A DNA stretch of 5,718 nt from IMG/VR virus record IMGVR_UViG_3300045988_001066, positions 1 to 5,718 of that record; one strand, 5' to 3'. This DNA is from a virus. Below are positions 1 through 5,718 of the stretch, piece by piece (position 1 is the first letter of the stretch; every line of letters begins with the position of its first letter). A program made the translations under genes and the position numbers. The notes beneath the pieces are model-generated. The model saw only the letters and a program-made list of their open reading frames with translations, did no database searches and was not told where the DNA came from.

Positions 1-55
1 AGCGTTCTTGCAATTTCGGTTTTGCCTTCCGCCATCCATTCTTGAGACAGTGTTG
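1..55. repeat. Terminal direct repeat, copy 1 (identical to 5664..5718); signature of a circular genome assembled past its junction
   Basis: agcgttcttgcaatttcggttttgccttccgccatccattcttgagacagtgttg occurs at both window ends, 55/55 identical, offset 5663 nt. It lies inside the VP1 frame, which stays open across the join. Confidence 0.97.
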
Positions 56-1583
56 GTACGGCTTCGTAGTTGTCTGCATAGTGCCAGAAGTCCAGTGTGC
101 CTGTTGCATTACTTCTCATGAGGCCGCTTACGCGGTTTGGCTTCATTCTGTAATCAGCCCATGCCTCCTGGTAGCCGAACGTCTCTTCATCAGTTGCCGT
201 GCCGGTTAGCATGATTTCTTTTTTCTTTACAGGCTGCTCACCTAAGTTTGCGAATTGGGGCACATAGTAGTCCAGCCTGTCTTTTCTGCTCCAGAATCTT
301 TCAAGCCCCTGCTGGTACGTTCTGCTGTGGCGTACGCACAACACACCGATTACGAATCCGTGCTCCTCAAAGCTTTTCGTGAAGGAACTTTCGTTGATAG
401 GCGTTACGGACACTGCGCCGGTTTCGCCAATAGGCGTATCGTTTTCAGTCTGCTGCCCGCTTGTCTGTACAATTTGGTTCATTCCGACTCTGTAGCGTCC
501 ACCGCCGAGATATTCCGGAATCTGTACCGTTTTGTCGCTGATGGTTACATCCCACAGTGCCTGTACCTGTTCGCGGTAGCGGCTTCCGCCTCTTGCCATT
601 GCCTCATAGTACTGCTGCACTGCAATTGCGTTGCGTAGTTCGTTAATGGTTGTTGCTGTGACCGCTGCAAGGTCTGCGTATACATAGCCACTTCCGATTT
701 CTCCATTTTTTCTGTCTGTTCCATCGTACAATAATTGCTTTTTTCTGCTTACGGGATTAGTTGTGTAATTTAAACCTCCCGCTGCGTTTGACGCCTGTGT
801 TTCTCCTAAAACAAATTCCAGGGTACCATAGTCCATTTCATATCCGTGGGAACTTCTTAGTGCTACTGGTGCGTTTCCTGTCATTGGAATTGTGACTTCT
901 GGTCCGCGCTGCGGATAAGGCAGACAGCTTGAGAAGTAATCGTGAAAACGATTGACAGGAAGGCATTGGCCTCCCTTGTACGCTTCTTTGAGAATTGTTT
1001 CGATATCTGCATTTTTTCCGCTGTCGCTGTAGTTAACTTCATCATCATTTTTTACCAATGTTGCCGGGTTTTCTACGTTTTGATCTCTGAAATATTCGTT
1101 CCAGATCAAAACGTATGCTCTGATAGGCAATGCATTGATACTGGTTCTATTTTCGGGTGTCTTGATGCTTTTTGCTGGTATTCCCATATAGTCTAGTATC
1201 GATTCTTCGAATGGGATTTCCATGTTTTTTTCGTTTTCTAGTAAGATTTGTGGTACACTGTACGTTTTGCTTGGCATCCATGCTGTATTGTCTGCTTCTC
1301 CCATGAACGGTTTGAAGTTGTCCCACAGGATACGATTTGGACAATAGAAGTAGTAGAGGTCGAGGAATGCATCGTCCATCACCGGATACTTCGGTGTGGA
1401 CATGCGGATTATCGCGCTGGTGTCTATTTGGAATGTGTCTCCCGGCAGTACTTCGTCTACAAAGAACGGAATGAGCTTGCCGCTGTCGAACGTGGTTAGG
1501 ATTGTCTGGTCACGGTTGAATCGTGTTCTGCTTGTGTGCAATTGCGGTACGTTCAGAAAGTGTTTTTCGTTGTTTCTATTCAT
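1..1583 (-). CDS. VP1: Major capsid protein VP1 (phiX174 F-like capsid family), first 527 codons; continues over the circular junction into 5663..5561 (561 aa in total)
   Basis: Manual reverse-complement translation from ATG 1583..1581 has no stop down to base 1. It begins MNRNNEKHFLNVPQLHTSRTRFNRDQTILTTFDSGKLIPFFVDEVLPGDTF. Blocks I recognise as microvirus capsid hallmarks: LPIRAYVLIWNEYFRD, NRFHDYFSSCLPYPQRG, TINELRNAIAVQQYYEAMARGGSRY, EHGFVIGVLCVRH...YQQG, DYYVPQFANLGEQPV, FGYQEAWADYRMKPNRVSG. The ATG overlaps the VP3 stop (ATGA). Confidence 0.95.
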   Translation of the reverse strand, partial: MNRNNEKHFLNVPQLHTSRTRFNRDQTILTTFDSGKLIPFFVDEVLPGDTFQIDTSAIIRMSTPKYPVMDDAFLDLYYFYCPNRILWDNFKPFMGEADNTAWMPSKTYSVPQILLENEKNMEIPFEESILDYMGIPAKSIKTPENRTSINALPIRAYVLIWNEYFRDQNVENPATLVKNDDEVNYSDSGKNADIETILKEAYKGGQCLPVNRFHDYFSSCLPYPQRGPEVTIPMTGNAPVALRSSHGYEMDYGTLEFVLGETQASNAAGGLNYTTNPVSRKKQLLYDGTDRKNGEIGSGYVYADLAAVTATTINELRNAIAVQQYYEAMARGGSRYREQVQALWDVTISDKTVQIPEYLGGGRYRVGMNQIVQTSGQQTENDTPIGETGAVSVTPINESSFTKSFEEHGFVIGVLCVRHSRTYQQGLERFWSRKDRLDYYVPQFANLGEQPVKKKEIMLTGTATDEETFGYQEAWADYRMKPNRVSGLMRSNATGTLDFWHYADNYEAVPTLSQEWMAEGKTEIART

Positions 1584-1978
1584 TCTGCCGTTTCACTCCG
1601 TTCTTCTGATTTTTCTTCTTGTGCTTTGCTCTGTTCTTCCAGCTCTTTGAGCTTCATTGCGTTGGCTTGCGCCGTTGCAATCATCCGGTGGTATTCGTGA
1701 ATGTTCTGCGGCCATTCTGTCACGTCCATTTCTACGCCATCCATAGCGCCTTGCGACAGGTTTTTCAGGAATTCCGGGTCGAAACTTGCCTTCCGGACAA
1801 TGTTTTTGATGTCGCATTCGTCTGCGTAGCTTTCAATTTCCTGCTGGATGTCGATTGGTTCGGTCTCTTTCAGCTCTTCCTGGCCTTTTTCGTCCTTTGT
1901 CCAGACGTACTGTCTTCGTAGTTTTTCGCCTGAATTTGAAAAGAAGGGCTCTCGCCCTTCCTCGTATCGTTTATTCAT
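1580..1978 (-). CDS. VP3: Internal scaffolding protein VP3-like (132 aa)
   Basis: ATG 1978..1976 is preceded by GGGAGGG 8 nt upstream. The protein is acidic and helical (MNKRYEEGREPFF...KELEEQSKAQEEKSEERSETAE). It sits directly upstream of VP1 and is translationally coupled to it. Assignment rests on size, charge and position as in gokushoviruses rather than on a sharp motif. The track start at 2026 is a TTG inside the preceding ORF. Confidence 0.72.
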   Translation of the reverse strand: MNKRYEEGREPFFSNSGEKLRRQYVWTKDEKGQEELKETEPIDIQQEIESYADECDIKNIVRKASFDPEFLKNLSQGAMDGVEMDVTEWPQNIHEYHRMIATAQANAMKLKELEEQSKAQEEKSEERSETAE

Positions 1979-2210
1979 TCGGCTTGCCCTCCCACACTTT
2001 TTCCTTGTCGTTCGTGAACGTTCCAAGCTCGTCCTCGAACGTTGCCAGCTTGAAGCCGGTGTAGTCCTGCGGACTCTGCCCGATGAAGGTCGTCTTATCC
2101 TTTTCCATTACGTTGCACATGCGTGCAAAGGTTCCGTTGTTTTTGCTTTCGCCTACCCATGCGTAGCACTTTGCTACGTTGTCGTAGATGCCATAGTACA
2201 GATGTTCCAT
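1971..2210 (-). CDS. Small protein (79 aa), possibly the gokushovirus VP5-type nonstructural protein; function unknown
   Basis: The ATG at 2210 has AAAGGAAAG just upstream. The ORF fills the gap between the basic protein and VP3 exactly, and its stop overlaps the VP3 start (AATGAATAA). The N-terminus LYYGIYDNVAKCYAWVGESKNNGTFARMC recalls the xYDxxA....N...A.R motif I associate with small conserved microvirus proteins. That is recollection, not a search result. Confidence 0.6.
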   Translation of the reverse strand: MEHLYYGIYDNVAKCYAWVGESKNNGTFARMCNVMEKDKTTFIGQSPQDYTGFKLATFEDELGTFTNDKEKVWEGKPNE

Positions 2211-2226
2211 TGTTCTTTCCTTTCTC

Positions 2227-2349
2227 TTACAGCCGGATACCGCCGCGCATGGGCTTTTGGCTGAGGTTAATCGTTTTGGTCTTTCGTGCTGTCACGTTAA
2301 ACATTCGGCGGTCTTTTGTGCCGCTCATCTTCTTACGATGCTGTGCCAT
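2227..2349 (-). CDS. Small highly basic protein (40 aa), putative DNA-binding/packaging protein (phiX174 J / chlamydiaphage ORF8 analogue)
   Basis: Found by hand (below the track size cutoff). ATG 2349..2347 lies 7 nt after AAGGGAG. Sequence: MAQHRKKMSGTKDRRMFNVTARKTKTINLSQKPMRGGIRL, stop TAA 2229..2227. About a third of residues are K/R/H, there are no acidic residues except one D, and the C-terminus is RGGIRL. Confidence 0.7.
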   Translation of the reverse strand: MAQHRKKMSGTKDRRMFNVTARKTKTINLSQKPMRGGIRL

Positions 2350-2560
2350 TTTCGTACTCCCTTCTCATTAGTTCCATTTCGATTGCGTTTGCAAAACTTT
2401 TCATCTGCCAGATTTCATCCAGCAGTTTTTTTGCATCGTCGATACTTGAGACTTTTCTTAGCATTTTATAGTTGCCGTCAATCTCTTTGTATTTTCGATT
2501 GAGCAATTCTTCCAATGCGTCTGTGGTGCTGTCCCTGACGCTCCAACTTGTTCTTGTCAT
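2333..2560 (-). CDS. Hypothetical protein (75 aa), predicted helical, no TM segment
   Basis: The ATG at 2560 lies 5 nt after a consensus AAGGAG. It is packed 2 nt after the preceding ORF's stop and overlaps the next gene by 17 nt. There is no competing frame. Confidence 0.62.
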   Translation of the reverse strand: MTRTSWSVRDSTTDALEELLNRKYKEIDGNYKMLRKVSSIDDAKKLLDEIWQMKSFANAIEMELMRREYENGTAS

Positions 2561-2562
2561 TT

Positions 2563-2685
2563 TTACTCCTTTTCGTTTTCGTTGATGCTGTCATGCAGTG
2601 CATGATAGATTTCGTCAAGCTTTTCCAAGATCTGCATCATGAGACGAATTGCCTGCTTGACGTCCTTGATGGAAATAAGTGCCAT
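2563..2685 (-). CDS. Hypothetical small protein (40 aa), heptad-like amphipathic helix
   Basis: Found by hand. ATG 2685..2683 lies 6 nt after AAGGGGG and 1 nt after the M15 stop. Sequence: MALISIKDVKQAIRLMMQILEKLDEIYHALHDSINENEKE, TAA 2565..2563. It exactly fills the gap between two supported genes. Confidence 0.5.
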   Translation of the reverse strand: MALISIKDVKQAIRLMMQILEKLDEIYHALHDSINENEKE

Positions 2686-2686
2686 G

Positions 2687-3079
2687 TTATACCCCCTTTC
2701 TGTAGGCTTTTGTACGTGTGTCAATGTGTACCCATGTGTTGTACACGATAATGCCGCAGCTTTCCGGAATGATTTTGTTCAGTTTGTTGGCAATTTCTTT
2801 TGCGGTCATGCCTTTAATTTGGATGTCTGCTGCCATTCCTCTCATGTGGTATGAGTACTTCGCACCGCCTACTTCTTTATTCCTTGTCGGTGTTCTGTAT
2901 CCGCTGTTTATGTATACTGGCTTTCCGACTTGGTTTCTTAGGATGTCTAGAATAGATACTAGATAGTCATCGATGAATACGACTTGCGAACCATCTTTGC
3001 ACGCAAATTCTCGCACTTTAAAGTGCTGACCTATTTTTTCGTTTGCGTCTGTGTCCATGATATAACATCGGATAGCCAT
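2687..3079 (-). CDS. Zinc cell-wall peptidase, M15 family (Peptidase_M15_3 / VanY-like; 130 aa)
   Basis: Motifs: FKVREFACKDG, NSGYRTPTRNKEVGGAKYSYHMRGMAADI (SxHxxGxAxD) and WVHIDTR (HxD), the His/Asp/His zinc triad layout of M15 peptidases. I prefer the ATG at 3079, 6 nt after GAGAGGTG. The track's 3088 start is the GTG inside that SD. No signal peptide or TM segment. Confidence 0.9.
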   Translation of the reverse strand: MAIRCYIMDTDANEKIGQHFKVREFACKDGSQVVFIDDYLVSILDILRNQVGKPVYINSGYRTPTRNKEVGGAKYSYHMRGMAADIQIKGMTAKEIANKLNKIIPESCGIIVYNTWVHIDTRTKAYRKGV

Positions 3080-3103
3080 GTTGTTCACCTCTCTTCATTT
3101 CGT

Positions 3104-3132
3104 ATTTTACTTTTTTTTTAATCGCTTGTCAA
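3104..3132 (-). promoter_or_regulatory. Sigma70-type promoter driving the gene array (-35 TTGACA 3132..3127, 17-nt spacer, -10 TAAAAT 3109..3104)
   Basis: The minus strand reads attcaaaacaaaaaacagTTGACAagcgattaaaaaaaaagTAAAATacgaaatgaagagaggtgaacaacATG. The -35 is perfect, the spacer optimal and the -10 matches 5/6. An A-rich UP-like tract lies upstream and the first gene about 25 nt downstream. Confidence 0.72.
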
Positions 3133-3150
3133 CTGTTTTTTGTTTTGAAT

Positions 3151-3222
3151 GGCGCTTTAGCGCCTTGCCGTATGGAGCGCAGCGGAATGCGGCTTAATCC
3201 ATTCCTTTTTAGCGCTGTGCGC
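3151..3222. other. Cluster of short GC-rich inverted repeats upstream of the promoter
   Basis: GGCGC-ttta-GCGCC (3151..3164). GGAATG-10 nt-CATTCC (3184..3205) followed by TTTTT on the plus strand. Flanking GCGCAGC (3177..3183) / GCTGtgCGC (3214..3222) can pair with a 2-nt bulge. Confidence 0.4.
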
Positions 3223-3272
3223 GTTTATGCCGCTTTATTATATAACTTGTTGTAGGAGTAGTAGTAGGTACT

Positions 3273-3445
3273 GTTGAAAAGTTGAAAGTAGTAAAAATTA
3301 CTCGTTATCACGTGATAATTAAGAAATATTATCAGTTGAAAAAATTGTTGAAAAATTGTTGAAATGTTGAATGTTCGTCATTATGACTAATTTTATTGTG
3401 CACTTTTATGTTGAAAACCTGTTGAAAGTGTTGAAACTGTTGAAA
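3273..3445 (+). repeat. Iteron-like array: ten direct copies of GTTGAA(A/T), mostly TGTTGAAA, in three clusters
   Basis: Copies start at 3273 and 3281; at 3335, 3347, 3358 and 3366 (the last is GTTGAAT); and at 3410, 3421, 3430 and 3439. All are in one orientation, with spacing of 8 to 12 nt within clusters. Each copy ends in an A-tract. Confidence 0.9.
3305..3334. promoter_or_regulatory. Operator-like palindromes built from TGATAA(T) half-sites
   Basis: TTATCAcgTGATAA is a perfect 14-bp palindrome (3305..3318). It shares its right half with TGATAAT-8 nt-ATTATCA (3313..3334). The site lies between iteron clusters 1 and 2. Confidence 0.45.
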
Positions 3446-3452
3446 ACTAATT

Positions 3453-3499
3453 TACGCGCATGTGCGCGTGCGCGTTTCGCGCGCGTGCGCATGTGCGTA
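3453..3499. repeat. Imperfect 22-bp palindrome made of strictly alternating purine-pyrimidine sequence (cruciform / Z-DNA-prone / RNA hairpin)
   Basis: taCGCGCATGTGCGCGTGCGCG-ttt-CGCGCGCGTGCGCATGTGCGta. Pairing i+j=6952 gives 18 Watson-Crick pairs plus 4 G.T pairs (3458/3494, 3463/3489, 3466/3486, 3469/3483) on the plus strand. Purines and pyrimidines alternate without a break over 3453..3475 and 3478..3500. Confidence 0.85.
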
Positions 3500-3508
3500 C
3501 TAGCGGCA

Positions 3509-3524
3509 GCCCCATGATTGGGGC
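3509..3524. other. Small hairpin GCCCCA-tgat-TGGGGC
   Basis: A 6-bp inverted repeat with a 4-nt loop, between the GC palindrome and the plus-strand terminator. Confidence 0.35.
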
Positions 3525-3531
3525 GCGACGC

Positions 3532-3565
3532 AAGGGGTTGACTTTTAAGTCAACCCCTTTTATTT
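3532..3565 (+). terminator. Intrinsic (rho-independent) terminator oriented on the plus strand, antisense to all genes
   Basis: AAGGGGTTGACTT-tt-AAGTCAACCCCTT is a perfect inverted repeat (3532..3559). On the plus strand it runs straight into TTTTATTT. On the minus strand the same stem is followed by GCGTCGCG, with no U-tract. Both arms carry the GTTGA core of the iterons. Confidence 0.6.
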
Positions 3566-3602
3566 ACTGACTAGGCTGATACATGGAGTCTTTAAACTAT
3601 TA

Positions 3603-3636
3603 TAGCCCAGTACCTTACTTGATAGGTACTGGGCTA
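3603..3636 (-). terminator. 13-bp perfect hairpin 10 nt after the VP4 stop: candidate VP4 terminator and/or replication-origin hairpin
   Basis: tAGCCCAGTACCT-tacttgat-AGGTACTGGGCTa. On the minus strand it is followed by an A/T-rich but only weakly U-rich tail (TAATAGTTTAAAG). Confidence 0.45.
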
Positions 3637-3646
3637 GGTGACACCG

Positions 3647-4666
3647 TTAGAGTGTCCCACTCTTCTTCATTTGCTTTTTGATCACTCTTTCTTTTGTCTT
3701 GCATTGTTCTGCAAAGTCTGTATTTTCATATTTTAGCCGGTTTTCTGCTATGGCTGCTGCCTGTCTGCTTTGTTTAATTCTCCACAATCTTTGTGGGTTT
3801 TCGGCTTCCATCATTTTTTCATAATAACGTGGAATTTGCGCTTTCTTTCCGTTTGTACATTGGATGTATCCTTGTCTCCATATTTCTTCTTTGTGTTCTT
3901 GGTAATAGTGGTCTCCTAGTCCGGGTTTTAAGCTCATGCACGCGAATGGCTTTTGTTGACCTAACTCGTAGTATTGGTTTGCTTTCTTTCCGTCTATCTC
4001 GTACATTTTTTTTGTTACGTATCCTGCAACATATCTATATGTCTCTGGTACTGCTTGTGCTATCTGTATTTGACCCATGCCCCATAGGTCTGCTAGCCAT
4101 TGGCTTGTGAAGTATCCGTTGTGCTGTATCTTGTACAGGTGTTTCAGGTCTGTTGGTTGCCATCCATATAGTATCATGTGGTAATGTGGCCTTGCTGTCT
4201 GTTCTCCATACTCTCCTGCCACAAAATAGCGTAATTTGCCCCTGTAAGCCTTCCTAAGGCGTTTTAGAAATTTTTGAATGTCAGTATACAGTAATGTTTG
4301 TACGCTCTCAGGAGTCTTCTTTCCTGGCTTCCAGACGTATTGCACTTTCCTCATGATTTCGCCTGTGTTTATGATCATTCCTGGTACATGGTTATCATCG
4401 TATGTTAGCGTGATAAACCATACTTCTTCTTTGGGATAATCTCGTGCTTCTAATTCTATTCGTGTTGTCCAGTCTTCTCTTTGTCTTATTCTGCATCCGA
4501 TGCACTGCCCGCATGGTATTAACATGGCATCTTTTCTGTACATCAAATCTTCATATTTTAGCTGTTTTCCCGCTAACTGAGAAAAGCGGGAGAGTGAATA
4601 CACCCTCCCGCTAATGTCTTTGTCGTTAGGGTTGTACAGCCTTATTAATGGCTTGTAACAACTCAT
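3647..4666 (-). CDS. VP4: Rolling-circle replication initiation protein VP4 (HUH endonuclease superfamily, 339 aa)
   Basis: N-terminal cysteine cluster PCGQCIGCRIRQ, motif 1 FITLTYD, motif 2 ARPHYHMILYG, catalytic-Tyr motif 3 YVAGYVTKK. The ATG overlaps the VP2 stop (ATGA at 4666..4663). Confidence 0.95.
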   Translation of the reverse strand: MSCYKPLIRLYNPNDKDISGRVYSLSRFSQLAGKQLKYEDLMYRKDAMLIPCGQCIGCRIRQREDWTTRIELEARDYPKEEVWFITLTYDDNHVPGMIINTGEIMRKVQYVWKPGKKTPESVQTLLYTDIQKFLKRLRKAYRGKLRYFVAGEYGEQTARPHYHMILYGWQPTDLKHLYKIQHNGYFTSQWLADLWGMGQIQIAQAVPETYRYVAGYVTKKMYEIDGKKANQYYELGQQKPFACMSLKPGLGDHYYQEHKEEIWRQGYIQCTNGKKAQIPRYYEKMMEAENPQRLWRIKQSRQAAAIAENRLKYENTDFAEQCKTKERVIKKQMKKSGTL

Positions 4667-5520
4667 CTTAGGTAATCACCCGGCTTTCTTTTTTCCCCGT
4701 AGGATCCTGTTTTGTTCTGTGGTGCTTGATAGTTGCTTTTTCTGTCGTTCTTTTTTGGTACGTTTTTGTCAATCGCTTTGCTTGTGTCGTCTCCGATTTT
4801 TGTTAGTGCTTTTTGTAACCCGTATGGGCTCATGTGTGTGCTGCTGAGCATTTGCTGCCAGCTTTGTGCTGCATTGTACCAGTCACTTTTGCTCCAACTT
4901 GTGCTTTCATATGCGTTAGGCACAAATCCTCCGCTTCGGCTTACTCCTAGTGCACTGCTGCTTGCAAGTCCCATGCTTGCCCCGCTGATCGTTCCCGCGC
5001 TTCCGCCCGGTGTGCTTGCTCCACCGTTTGAGAATGCTAGAATCGGGTTAAGCCCCGCTTTTTTCATATCTTCTACGGCTCTTTGATATGCTGTGCTGCT
5101 CATGTGCTCTTGCCATTCACGGTTTGCTTGTGCTTCTGCGCTGTTGTAGTTCATTGCTACGCTGTTCTCGATGTGGTTGTATACGCCTTGCATGATTGCT
5201 TGTAGCGTGTTATAACCCATCTGTTTAAGCATACTTTGACTGTTGTATTTGCCCTGCATGGCTGCTTCTTGCCCTTGGTATGCGTATGCCTGCTTGAGCC
5301 AGTCATTGACCTGTTGCACGTTGGTGCCTGATTGGCTTCCGCTTTCGGAGTGTCCACCGCCTTCTTGTGTGCTTCCTCCGCTGCTTTGGCTGTTGCCTGT
5401 CTGTCCCCATCCGCCTAATGCTCCTGCGATTTGCTTTCCAGCATTCGCAAATGTTCCAACTGTGTTTGCAACGTTTCCGGCTATGTTGAGCGCTGTTAAC
5501 AGTCCTGATAATCCTGCCAT
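4663..5520 (-). CDS. VP2: DNA pilot / minor capsid protein VP2 (285 aa)
   Basis: The N-terminal third is Gly/Ser/Ala-rich (MAGLSGLLTALNIAGNVANTVG...GGSTQEGGGHSESGSQSG). The conserved-looking core is SSTAYQRAVEDMKKAGLNPILAF, which I recognise from gokushovirus VP2 proteins. The gene sits directly downstream of VP1. Confidence 0.88.
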   Translation of the reverse strand: MAGLSGLLTALNIAGNVANTVGTFANAGKQIAGALGGWGQTGNSQSSGGSTQEGGGHSESGSQSGTNVQQVNDWLKQAYAYQGQEAAMQGKYNSQSMLKQMGYNTLQAIMQGVYNHIENSVAMNYNSAEAQANREWQEHMSSTAYQRAVEDMKKAGLNPILAFSNGGASTPGGSAGTISGASMGLASSSALGVSRSGGFVPNAYESTSWSKSDWYNAAQSWQQMLSSTHMSPYGLQKALTKIGDDTSKAIDKNVPKKNDRKSNYQAPQNKTGSYGEKRKPGDYLR

Positions 5521-5522
5521 TT

Positions 5523-5550
5523 AAAAAATAGCCCGGGTTTTGCCCGGGCT
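5523..5550 (-). terminator. Intrinsic terminator/attenuator hairpin between VP1 and VP2
   Basis: The minus strand reads AGCCCGGG-caaaa-CCCGGGCT (5550..5530) followed by ATTTTTT (5529..5523). The hairpin starts 10 nt after the VP1 stop. Confidence 0.7.
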
Positions 5551-5551
5551 T

Positions 5552-5558
5552 CCTCCTT
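5552..5558 (-). promoter_or_regulatory. Consensus Shine-Dalgarno AAGGAGG separated from the VP2 ATG by the terminator hairpin
   Basis: The minus strand reads TAAgaAAGGAGGa[hairpin]attttttaaATG. The SD is 31 nt from the ATG in linear sequence and about 10 nt if the 21-nt hairpin is closed. Confidence 0.5.
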
Positions 5559-5560
5559 TC

Positions 5561-5718
5561 TTACAGTTTGTACAAGCCCGGTACACTGTACAAGGGCATA
5601 CAACGTGTGGTCTTGTTTGCTACGCGGATTGCGCCAAAGAATTGGTCTTCTTTCTGTTCAATGAGCGTTCTTGCAATTTCGGTTTTGCCTTCCGCCATCC
5701 ATTCTTGAGACAGTGTTG
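5561..5718 (-). CDS. VP1: Major capsid protein VP1, C-terminal end (unique part 5561..5663; 5664..5718 duplicates 1..55)
   Basis: The frame carried over from base 1 reads ...TLSQEWMAEGKTEIARTLIEQKEDQFFGAIRVANKTTRCMPLYSVPGLYKL then TAA at 5563..5561. 1583 + 103 nt = 1686 nt = 561 codons plus stop. Confidence 0.93.
   Translation of the reverse strand, partial: TLSQEWMAEGKTEIARTLIEQKEDQFFGAIRVANKTTRCMPLYSVPGLYKL
5664..5718. repeat. Terminal direct repeat, copy 2 (identical to 1..55)
   Basis: Same 55-mer as 1..55; see copy 1. Confidence 0.97.

Follow-up and report, generated by a model that had tools for sequence, protein, structure and literature searches.

The basal unwinding system (BUS) of bacterial replication origins comprises an AT-rich region, DnaA-trios and DnaA-boxes #6/#7 of the dnaA-dnaN spacer (incC/oriC2) (Richardson et al. 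2016/2019; Pelliciari et al. 2021; PMC6669920, PMC8287927). Such elements are searched for with a small set of rules, namely a DnaA-box with at most 2 mismatches, a second adjacent and co-oriented box (0–3 base pairs (bp) off) with at most 4 mismatches, and at least 3 consecutive NAN trios (consensus 3'-GAT-5') at a spacer of at most 16 bp (PMC8287927). Here we describe a module of this kind in a viral genome. The window, i.e., the whole stretch of 5,718 nucleotides (nt) analysed (IMG/VR record IMGVR_UViG_3300045988_001066, positions 1 to 5,718), contains the genome of a gokushovirus. It belongs to the Microviridae, whose textbook mode of replication relies on a phage HUH nickase and on host elongation factors. 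An array of ten direct repeats in its sole long non-coding region very probably consists of DnaA boxes that belong to an oriC-like BUS module. While this type of element is known, its occurrence as a conserved cassette in single-stranded DNA (ssDNA) phage genomes appears to be new: the literature searched yielded no relevant report of Microviridae or other phages with iterons, DnaA boxes, DnaA-trios or oriC-like elements, in line with a first-pass annotation of the window which held the layout to be undescribed for Microviridae.

Nine copies of GTTGAAA, all on the + strand, start at positions 3273, 3281, 3335, 3347, 3358, 3410, 3421, 3430 and 3439. Shuffled windows contain 0.91 copies on average and 4 at most, none of 200 shuffles reaching 9. 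A tenth copy, GTTGAAT, lies on the same strand at 3366. Start-to-start spacings within the three clusters are 8, then 12, 11 and 8, then 11, 9 and 9 nt, and the same arrays were recovered by Tandem Repeats Finder and by repeat finding. The first-pass annotation, which had reported nine GTTGAAA and one GTTGAAT, co-oriented within 3273–3445 and spaced by 8 to 12 nt, was therefore accurate as to copies and spacing. The repeat unit extends one base further 5' than GTTGAAA, yielding the 9-mer TGTTGAAAA, and the array accounts for just the 3' two-thirds of a conserved module of about 215 nt that begins near 3234 and is composed as follows:

3234–3246, + strand: AT-rich tract TTTATTATATAAC, read from the sequence, separated from the boxes by the trios, where a BUS has its duplex-unwinding element
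3245–3252, + strand: phage-specific block ACTTGTTG, between the AT-rich tract and the consensus trios, 90–99% conserved in an alignment of 140 modules
3253–3267, + strand: five putative DnaA-trios, TAG GAG TAG TAG TAG (consensus 5'-TAG-3', i.e., 3'-GAT-5'; definition of PMC8287927)
3268–3271, + strand: 4-nt gap GTAC from the trios to the proximal box, equivalent to the 'GC-cluster/gap region' of a BUS
3272–3288, + strand: putative BUS box pair, proximal TGTTGAAA(A) and distal AGTTGAAAG, co-oriented, 8 nt from start to start (array copies 1–2)
3289–3333, + strand: spacer 1, with a small palindrome TTATCACGTGATAA at 3305–3318
3334–3373, + strand: putative DnaA-box cluster 2, AGTTGAAAA, TGTTGAAAA, TGTTGAAAT and TGTTGAATG, spacing 12, 11 and 8 (array copies 3–6)
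3374–3408, + strand: spacer 2, with a small hairpin or palindrome CGTCATTATGAC at 3376–3387 and a conserved TTGTGCA(A)C at 3396–3403
3409–3446, + strand: putative DnaA-box cluster 3, TGTTGAAAA, TGTTGAAAG, TGTTGAAAC and TGTTGAAAA, spacing 11, 9 and 9 (array copies 7–10)

The B. subtilis BUS, given in an excerpt of Table S1 of Pelliciari et al. 2021 (PMC8287927) as 3'-AATAGGTGT TTAGGTGT CCGG GATGATAATGAAGATGAT AAAAAATAT-5', reads TATAAAAAA, TAGTAGAAGTAATAGTAG, GGCC, TGTGGATT and TGTGGATAA in the 5' to 3' direction. Positions 3238–3288 of the window read TATTATATAAC TTGTTG, TAGGAGTAGTAGTAG, GTAC, TGTTGAAA and AGTTGAAAG; order, strand relation, the 4-nt gap and the 8-nt box-to-box spacing are identical. 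The first box, TGTTGAAAA at 3272–3280, has 2 mismatches to TGTGGATAA, the most that the search rules allow, 1 to TGTGNAWAA and 0 to the box type which dominates the matching Clostridia origins described below. The second, AGTTGAAAG at 3280–3288, is mismatched at 4 positions, or at 3 when W is accepted at position 7, again within the limit, and the trios at 3253–3267 lie on the right side and on the + strand, with a 4-nt gap and a spacer of 12 (8-mer box plus gap). Used as a strict pattern, TAGTAGTAG-N4-box-box matches the window once, versus 0.00 times expected from shuffles. TGTGGATAA is the reverse complement of the consensus DnaA box TTATCCACA, and TGTTGAAAA reads TTTTCAACA on the other strand. 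Written as 3'-AAAAGTTGT-5', TGTTGAAAA is a species-specific DnaA box of DoriC in the excerpt of Table S1, where it occurs at least 47 times, any column counted (PMC8287927). The reverse complement of the trio of Clostridioides difficile is TAGTAGTAATAGTAGTAGGTG (PMC7561715).

A motif search of related microviruses, as proposed in the first-pass annotation, revealed the module in more than 190 gut gokushovirus genomes whose VP4 clades are 36–100% identical, VP4 being the HUH initiator of these phages. Positions 3233–3447 are kept at 70–82% identity in 46 GenBank gokushovirus records from the guts of humans, pigs, monkeys, dogs, minks and raccoons, none of which has the module annotated. Two pattern scans of IMG/VR, one for each end of the module, returned 150 complete or partial microvirus genomes, 147 of them by the 3' pattern; two chance matches inside coding regions of large contigs (L030 and L121) were discarded. 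These genomes were sorted into clades A, B and C, whose VP4 is >80%, 45–60% and <45% identical to that of the window.

The geometry of the module is strongly conserved. A block with 3-nt periodicity directly precedes the first two repeats in every module (TTG TTG TAG GAG TAG TAG TAG in the window), and TAGTAGTAG is found in 128 of the 147 modules, which had been retrieved by the pattern at the opposite end; the TTG TTG of the ACTTGTTG region keeps the 3-nt register and breaks the NAN rule of the trios. The gap measures 4 nt in 98 of 127 phage modules; it is GGCC in B. subtilis, GTGC in S. aureus and GGGC or GGAC in the bacterial matches. Of 140 modules, 132 have a first pair spaced by 8 nt (101 modules) or 9 nt (31 modules). 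Across 127 related modules, mean A+T content is 73% in the 25 nt that precede the trios; in alignments with bacterial oriCs, the AT-rich tract falls on their AT-rich side, the one nearer dnaN. Spacer 1 has a conserved length and a clade-dependent sequence, with box-to-box distances of 53–54 or 44–45 nt in the relatives and 54 nt in the window (3281 to 3335), and a spacer of similar length occupies this position in bacterial oriCs. Cluster 2 and the trios are the most conserved portion of the module. The 1372 boxes of the 147 modules (9.3 per genome) define the matrix T-G-T-(T>G)-G-A-A-A-N, variants at the same box positions including TGTGGAAAA and, in clade B, perfect TGTGGATAA. We infer that TTGTGCA(A)C in spacer 2 may be a degenerate inverted box.

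Scanning one genome per bacterial species with the phage-derived pattern GTAGTAG-N3-9-TGTTGAW-N1-3-GTTGAWA yielded at least 120 matches, about 20 being estimated for uniform base composition. Those listed are dominated by Clostridia (Clostridium, Oscillospiraceae, Ruminococcus, Lachnospiraceae and others). The genes dnaA and dnaN were located with DnaA and DnaN queries, loci L223 and L157 being checked by Pfam, which confirmed DnaA and DnaN (beta-clamp) in both. Among the matches listed, dnaA and/or dnaN flank the match in 97 of 120 loci, and the canonical order dnaN<-[AT, trios, boxes]<-dnaA is found in 63 of the 66 loci with both genes. The dnaA-dnaN spacer has a median length of 289 nt, with 21.9 boxes per kb inside versus 1.8 per kb in the flanks. 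No microvirus genes were found in these bacterial origin loci.

The resemblance extends beyond the scanned pattern. A profile hidden Markov model of 140 phage modules aligns over positions ~30–220 of its 230 to bacterial oriCs, with E values down to 7.6e-17, and does so for all three phage clades; its best matches are gut metagenome-assembled genomes labelled Clostridia, Ruminococcus, Oscillospiraceae, Eubacteriales and Ruthenibacterium. Downstream of the box pair, the bacterial origins continue with a spacer of ~50 nt and then tight head-to-tail clusters of TGTTGAAA like phage clusters 2 and 3 (e.g., L215, L223 and L269). An alignment of eight sequences (the window, two phages, four oriCs and the B. 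subtilis BUS) is free of gaps over trios, gap and boxes, the oriCs aligned without gaps at the trios being those of Oscillospiraceae, Ruminococcus and B. subtilis. The phage box matrix and that derived from bacterial dnaA-dnaN spacers are nearly identical. In anatomy and geometry the conserved phage module is equivalent to real oriCs: beside an AT-rich tract, which is short in the phage, both present trios (5'-TAG-3'), a 4-nt gap and two co-oriented boxes 8 nt apart, followed on the same side by more box clusters, with TGTTGAAAA-type boxes as in Oscillospiraceae and Ruminococcus origins. The module measures ~215 nt, compared with the median bacterial spacer of 289 nt. That the repeats may be binding sites for a host factor, one of the alternatives raised in the first-pass annotation, gains support from this match to bacterial oriC boxes. 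It also suggests Oscillospiraceae and Ruminococcus, whose origins match best, as hosts, an assignment made by origin similarity alone.

The module points along the VP4 strand in 101 genomes and along the opposite strand in 42 of 143, the window being in the minority. Clade C is almost wholly opposite, clade B wholly same, and clade A comprises 57 same and 6 opposite; this spread over the clades implies at least two inversions. Within clade A, the window, L001, L022 and L052 share the flanks of their relatives but carry a flipped module. A comparison of intergenic regions, read in gene sense, among the window, L007, L022 and L052 places the inversion endpoints at the two arms of a short inverted repeat:

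3218–3224: TGCGCGT, left arm, bracketing the inverted segment
3454–3460: ACGCGCA, right arm, an inversion endpoint at the edge of a GC-rich palindrome

The module thus represents a self-contained cassette that would work in either orientation and is better conserved than the surrounding proteins. Folding of its single strands showed no excess over shuffled controls (z = 0.01 and -0.48). Free orientation and the lack of an unusual fold fit an element of duplex DNA.

Further support comes from a distant lineage of 4.7-kb microviruses (L299, L301, L323 and L330), whose VP1 and VP4 are 35% and 29% identical to those of the window. Their genomes carry an AT-rich region, (TAG)6, GCAT and TGTGGAAA TGTGGAAA (TGTGGAAATGTGGAAA), then five perfect TGTGGATAA boxes. 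The same layout built with consensus boxes in so distant a lineage independently supports that the repeats of the window are DnaA boxes. The T-type pattern matched 77 IMG/VR contigs, almost all of them microviruses of 5–6 kb, with VP1 or VP4 detected in 32 of 43 additional loci, and the G-type (canonical) pattern matched 59 contigs, the 4.7-kb lineage among them.

BUS-like sites with trios, gap, box pair and TGTGGATAA clusters were also observed in many larger IMG/VR viral contigs of 10–160 kb (L278, L288, L290, L295, L296, L308, L316, L317, L321, L324, L326, L331, L332 and others). Neither dnaA nor dnaN was found in the fetched stretches of these contigs. Modules resembling oriC may also be common among double-stranded DNA phages or phage-plasmids, although these contigs could include contaminating host sequence.

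Several observations weigh against the identification of the module as a BUS and against its use as an origin, or set it apart from bacterial origins. The pattern used for the bacterial scan is itself BUS-shaped, and with its at least 120 matches the taxonomic picture is incomplete. TGTTGAAAA departs from TTATCCACA at C6, which is replaced by A, in the CACA half that is normally well conserved. The generic rule TTWTNCACA with at most 1 mismatch accepts just 4 of the 10 copies, and its matches are not enriched in the window (10 versus 12.2 expected). Our identification relies on BUS geometry and on real oriCs rather than on a generic TTWTNCACA scan. The AT-rich tract extends for only ~13 nt before GC-rich DNA follows, and the conserved ACTTGTTG block has no counterpart in bacterial oriCs. 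Unlike the bacterial boxes, those of the phage are almost all co-oriented (0.25 opposite-strand boxes per module). The origins of B. subtilis and C. difficile normally also need a box region upstream of dnaA (for C. difficile, PMC7561715), whereas the phage module corresponds only to the dnaA-dnaN half of such an origin. It resides in a 5.7-kb ssDNA phage, between the microvirus VP4 and peptidase genes instead of between dnaA and dnaN; given this location we term it an oriC-like element and no oriC proper. We know of no report of theta-type or DnaA-dependent replication in Microviridae, and VP4 rolling-circle replication is clearly retained.

With these reservations, we favour with moderate confidence a reading in which the module mimics the dnaA-dnaN origin type of gut Clostridia and supports DnaA-driven replication. 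The incoming single strand would first be converted to the double-stranded replicative form, on which host DnaA-ATP would bind the boxes. DnaA would then oligomerise from the proximal pair onto the trios and melt the trios and the AT-rich region (3234–3267), where host loaders (DnaD/DnaB/DnaI in Firmicutes) could place the replicative helicase and primase. Replication or priming of the replicative form would thereby fall to the initiation machinery of the host, with no dependence on the VP4 nick, to the presumed benefit of the phage, titration of DnaA being an unavoidable side effect. An origin acting on duplex DNA would be indifferent to its orientation relative to the genes, which would explain the inversions. 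Masai and Arai reportedly described a DnaA-dependent 'ABC primosome' A-site on single-stranded DNA, with a box inside a hairpin stem. It sets a precedent for DnaA aiding the replication of single-stranded replicons, although the phage module lacks such a hairpin fold (z of 0.01 and -0.48, as above).

If correct, this reading would add a second replication system to the Microviridae, with hundreds of gut gokushoviruses and a very distant lineage tapping host initiation. For gokushovirus replication the module offers a concrete candidate cis element, and it suggests a possible route to the stable gut persistence of very small phages. Matching phage origin mimics to bacterial oriCs could serve to predict hosts where none is in culture, as is the case for this clade. 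The BUS model would also receive an independent test, a size-constrained virus having kept precisely trios, gap and box pair. It is possible, if doubtful, that the replicative form goes further and behaves as a DnaA-dependent minichromosome that follows the host cell cycle in its replication, and perhaps in its inheritance, as an oriC plasmid does. A 'lytic-type' ssDNA phage would then gain a plasmid-like carrier state without integration, and its origin sequence would report its host, Oscillospiraceae or Ruminococcus here and consensus-box hosts for the 4.7-kb lineage.

All evidence for the identity of the DnaA boxes applies equally to a role in which they bind DnaA with no replication start, either as a sponge whose titration stops initiation of the host chromosome or as a DnaA-responsive transcription switch. 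Box clusters that recruit DnaA outside oriC are known from titrating loci such as E. coli datA and the B. subtilis DnaA-box clusters. With 9.3 boxes per genome, about ten boxes on each multicopy replicative form would titrate DnaA, which is expected anyway as a side effect of an origin, and the module adjoins the promoter of the downstream gene block (3132–3104). Yet a sponge or switch needs boxes alone, and datA-type loci have neither trios nor a duplex-unwinding element. Phage clades whose proteins are only 36–55% identical preserve the trios, the AT-rich tract and the exact spacings (4 nt for the gap, 8 nt for the box pair) at least as well as they do the boxes. The same features recur in the very distant microvirus lineage, and in bacteria this geometry is specific to origin unwinding. 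We consequently deem such a role unlikely.

An origin mimic could also act in concert with VP4. DnaA would open the region and expose a VP4 nick site at the phage-specific AACTTG (3244–3249), and module orientation would set the displaced and packaged strand. The sequence resembles the phiX174 nick core CAACTTG^ATA, HUH enzymes cut single-stranded DNA, the ACTTGTTG block is 90–99% conserved in phages and absent from bacterial oriCs, and the whole module inverts as one cassette. A better candidate nevertheless exists in a hairpin at 3603–3636, just 3' of the VP4 stop, of the form TAGCCCAGTACCT-TACTTGAT-AGGTACTGGGCTA. Its loop carries ACTTGATA on the + strand, identical to the nick-site core of phiX174 and pC194, CTTG^ATA. 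Perfect hairpins of at least 8 bp with a CTTGAT loop are present in 64 of 155 relatives and use at least 5 unrelated stem sequences, i.e., the stems co-vary. This hairpin is therefore a candidate VP4 nick site, though it lies on the strand antisense to the genes. In addition, the C of ACTTG varies in some relatives (AATTTG, AAGTTG), and no clear difference at fourfold-degenerate sites separates genomes of opposite module orientation, a small whole-genome C/T shift being mostly due to the flip of the G-rich module itself. A DnaA-assisted rolling-circle origin of this sort is quite improbable.

The repeats might instead be VP4-binding iterons of a rolling-circle origin, similar to the pMV158 'bind' element or to geminivirus iterons, which is the nearest defensible form of the iteron idea put forward in the first-pass annotation. 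As in the nic/bind origin of pMV158 and in geminivirus and circovirus origins, an HUH initiator gene is nearby (~200 nt from the repeats), and the repeats lie a few hundred nt from a candidate nick hairpin; origins of this kind typically have direct repeats close to a hairpin (PMC1851628). In those systems, unlike here, the distance and orientation of the repeats are fixed: the phage module varies in both relative to VP4 and the hairpin. The motif is unchanged in genomes with VP4 at 36–100% identity, and its constancy across clades whose VP4 is only 36–55% identical argues against VP4 as its binding partner. No co-variation of initiator and repeats was observed, the same box matrix being recovered at VP4 identities of >80%, 45–60% and <45% and in bacterial chromosomes, whose origins contain the same repeats and flanking trios without any VP4. 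We rate VP4-binding iterons as very improbable.

The first-pass annotation had proposed an iteron-controlled replicon. The module shares with the theta replicons of that class (pPS10, R6K, RK2, F and P1 oriR) clustered direct repeats that would bind an initiator beside an AT-rich region, and several iteron theta origins also use DnaA boxes as helpers. Their iterons are, however, 17–22 bp long and bind a plasmid-encoded winged-helix Rep of the RepA, pi or TrfA type. Here the unit is of 7–9 bp, best described as a 9-bp DnaA-box variant repeated at 8–12 bp and shared with the dnaA-dnaN spacers of Clostridia; the phage encodes no such Rep, its only initiator being the HUH protein of PF23343, and the initiator at the module would be host DnaA. 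No plasmid match to the module was obtained in PLSDB. The same annotation had pointed to an inverted pair of the GTTGA core in a stem at 3532–3559. This stem is real, a perfect 13-bp inverted repeat (AAGGGGTTGACTT/AAGTCAACCCCTT) with a GTTGAC rather than GTTGAA core, but the role of inverted iteron assigned to it did not hold, as it is absent from ~95% of the relatives. Inverted half-iterons at a rep promoter were likewise not found, the stem lying 3' of VP4, where 3532–3566 scores as a strong + strand intrinsic terminator antisense to VP4. This hairpin occurs in only 6–7 of 155 array-bearing relatives (the window, L014, L022, L037, L043, L088 and L113) and so is no partner of the repeats.

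The remaining readings are a theta replicon under iteron control, a structured non-coding RNA or single-strand origin, promoter-like decoys and a packaging signal. In the window, the module has a TATAAT-like box ahead of it and the + strand terminator behind it, and TTGAAA resembles a -35 hexamer. All of these readings are highly improbable, because none of them accounts for the bacterial oriC match, the terminator is confined to the few relatives just named, and unit length and initiator type misfit iteron plasmids. The last two had been alternatives of the first-pass annotation, and both fell short on the same ground. No Rfam match was found near the array in a search of the whole window, and neither strand folds in excess, which disfavours a structured RNA or a hairpin-type single-strand origin. 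A small protein was considered as well: the + strand open reading frame at 3371–3517 is interrupted in relatives, and no conserved frame was detected.

The window represents a complete circular gokushovirus genome. An exact 55-nt terminal redundancy (1–55 identical to 5664–5718) indicates a circle of 5663 nt cut within VP1. All recognisable genes are on the minus strand:

spanning both window ends, minus strand: VP1
1580–2026, minus strand: VP3 (Chlamy_scaf)
1971–2210, minus strand: VP5
2687–3088, minus strand: M15 peptidase
3647–4666, minus strand: VP4 (Pfam REP_ORF2-G2P, PF23343), HUH rolling-circle initiator/endonuclease
4663–5520, minus strand: VP2

The module lies in the non-coding region between VP4 and the peptidase gene (3089–3646), in the interval of lowest GC content of the whole genome (3201–3400, 29.5%). 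The promoter that it adjoins, TTGACA-17-TAAAAT, is on the gene strand and serves the downstream gene block. Between this promoter and the module, a conserved non-coding block with short GC hairpins (GGCGCTTTAGCGCC, AGCGCTGTGCGCG) occupies 3140–3232 and is found in most clade A relatives; it keeps the same side of the downstream genes whichever way the module points. On the other side, between the module and VP4, positions 3455–3497 form a GC-rich near-perfect palindrome, CGCGCATGTGCGCGTGCGCG-TTTC-GCGCGCGTGCGCATGTGCG. A palindrome of the same kind is located at that position in most clade A and B relatives and is absent in L052. Possible roles for it are those of a single-strand origin or of a recombination hotspot, the latter idea arising from the inversion endpoints at its edge.

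At fourfold-degenerate sites of the gene-sense strand, A amounts to ~0.51 and T to ~0.12 in the window and in all relatives alike, so that the antisense strand is the T-rich strand. Together with the ACTTGATA loop motif, this raises the question of which strand is packaged. A 16-kb IMG/VR contig (L138) carries a dense TGTTGAAAA array at ~10900–11300, at the contig end; no microvirus, dnaA or dnaN genes were found in the fetched part of it. Finally, a 10.9-kb IMG/VR contig (L026) encodes two VP4 proteins, 93% and 31% identical to that of the window, and probably results from chimeric assembly or from the co-assembly of two microviruses, which would explain its aberrant fourfold-site composition.

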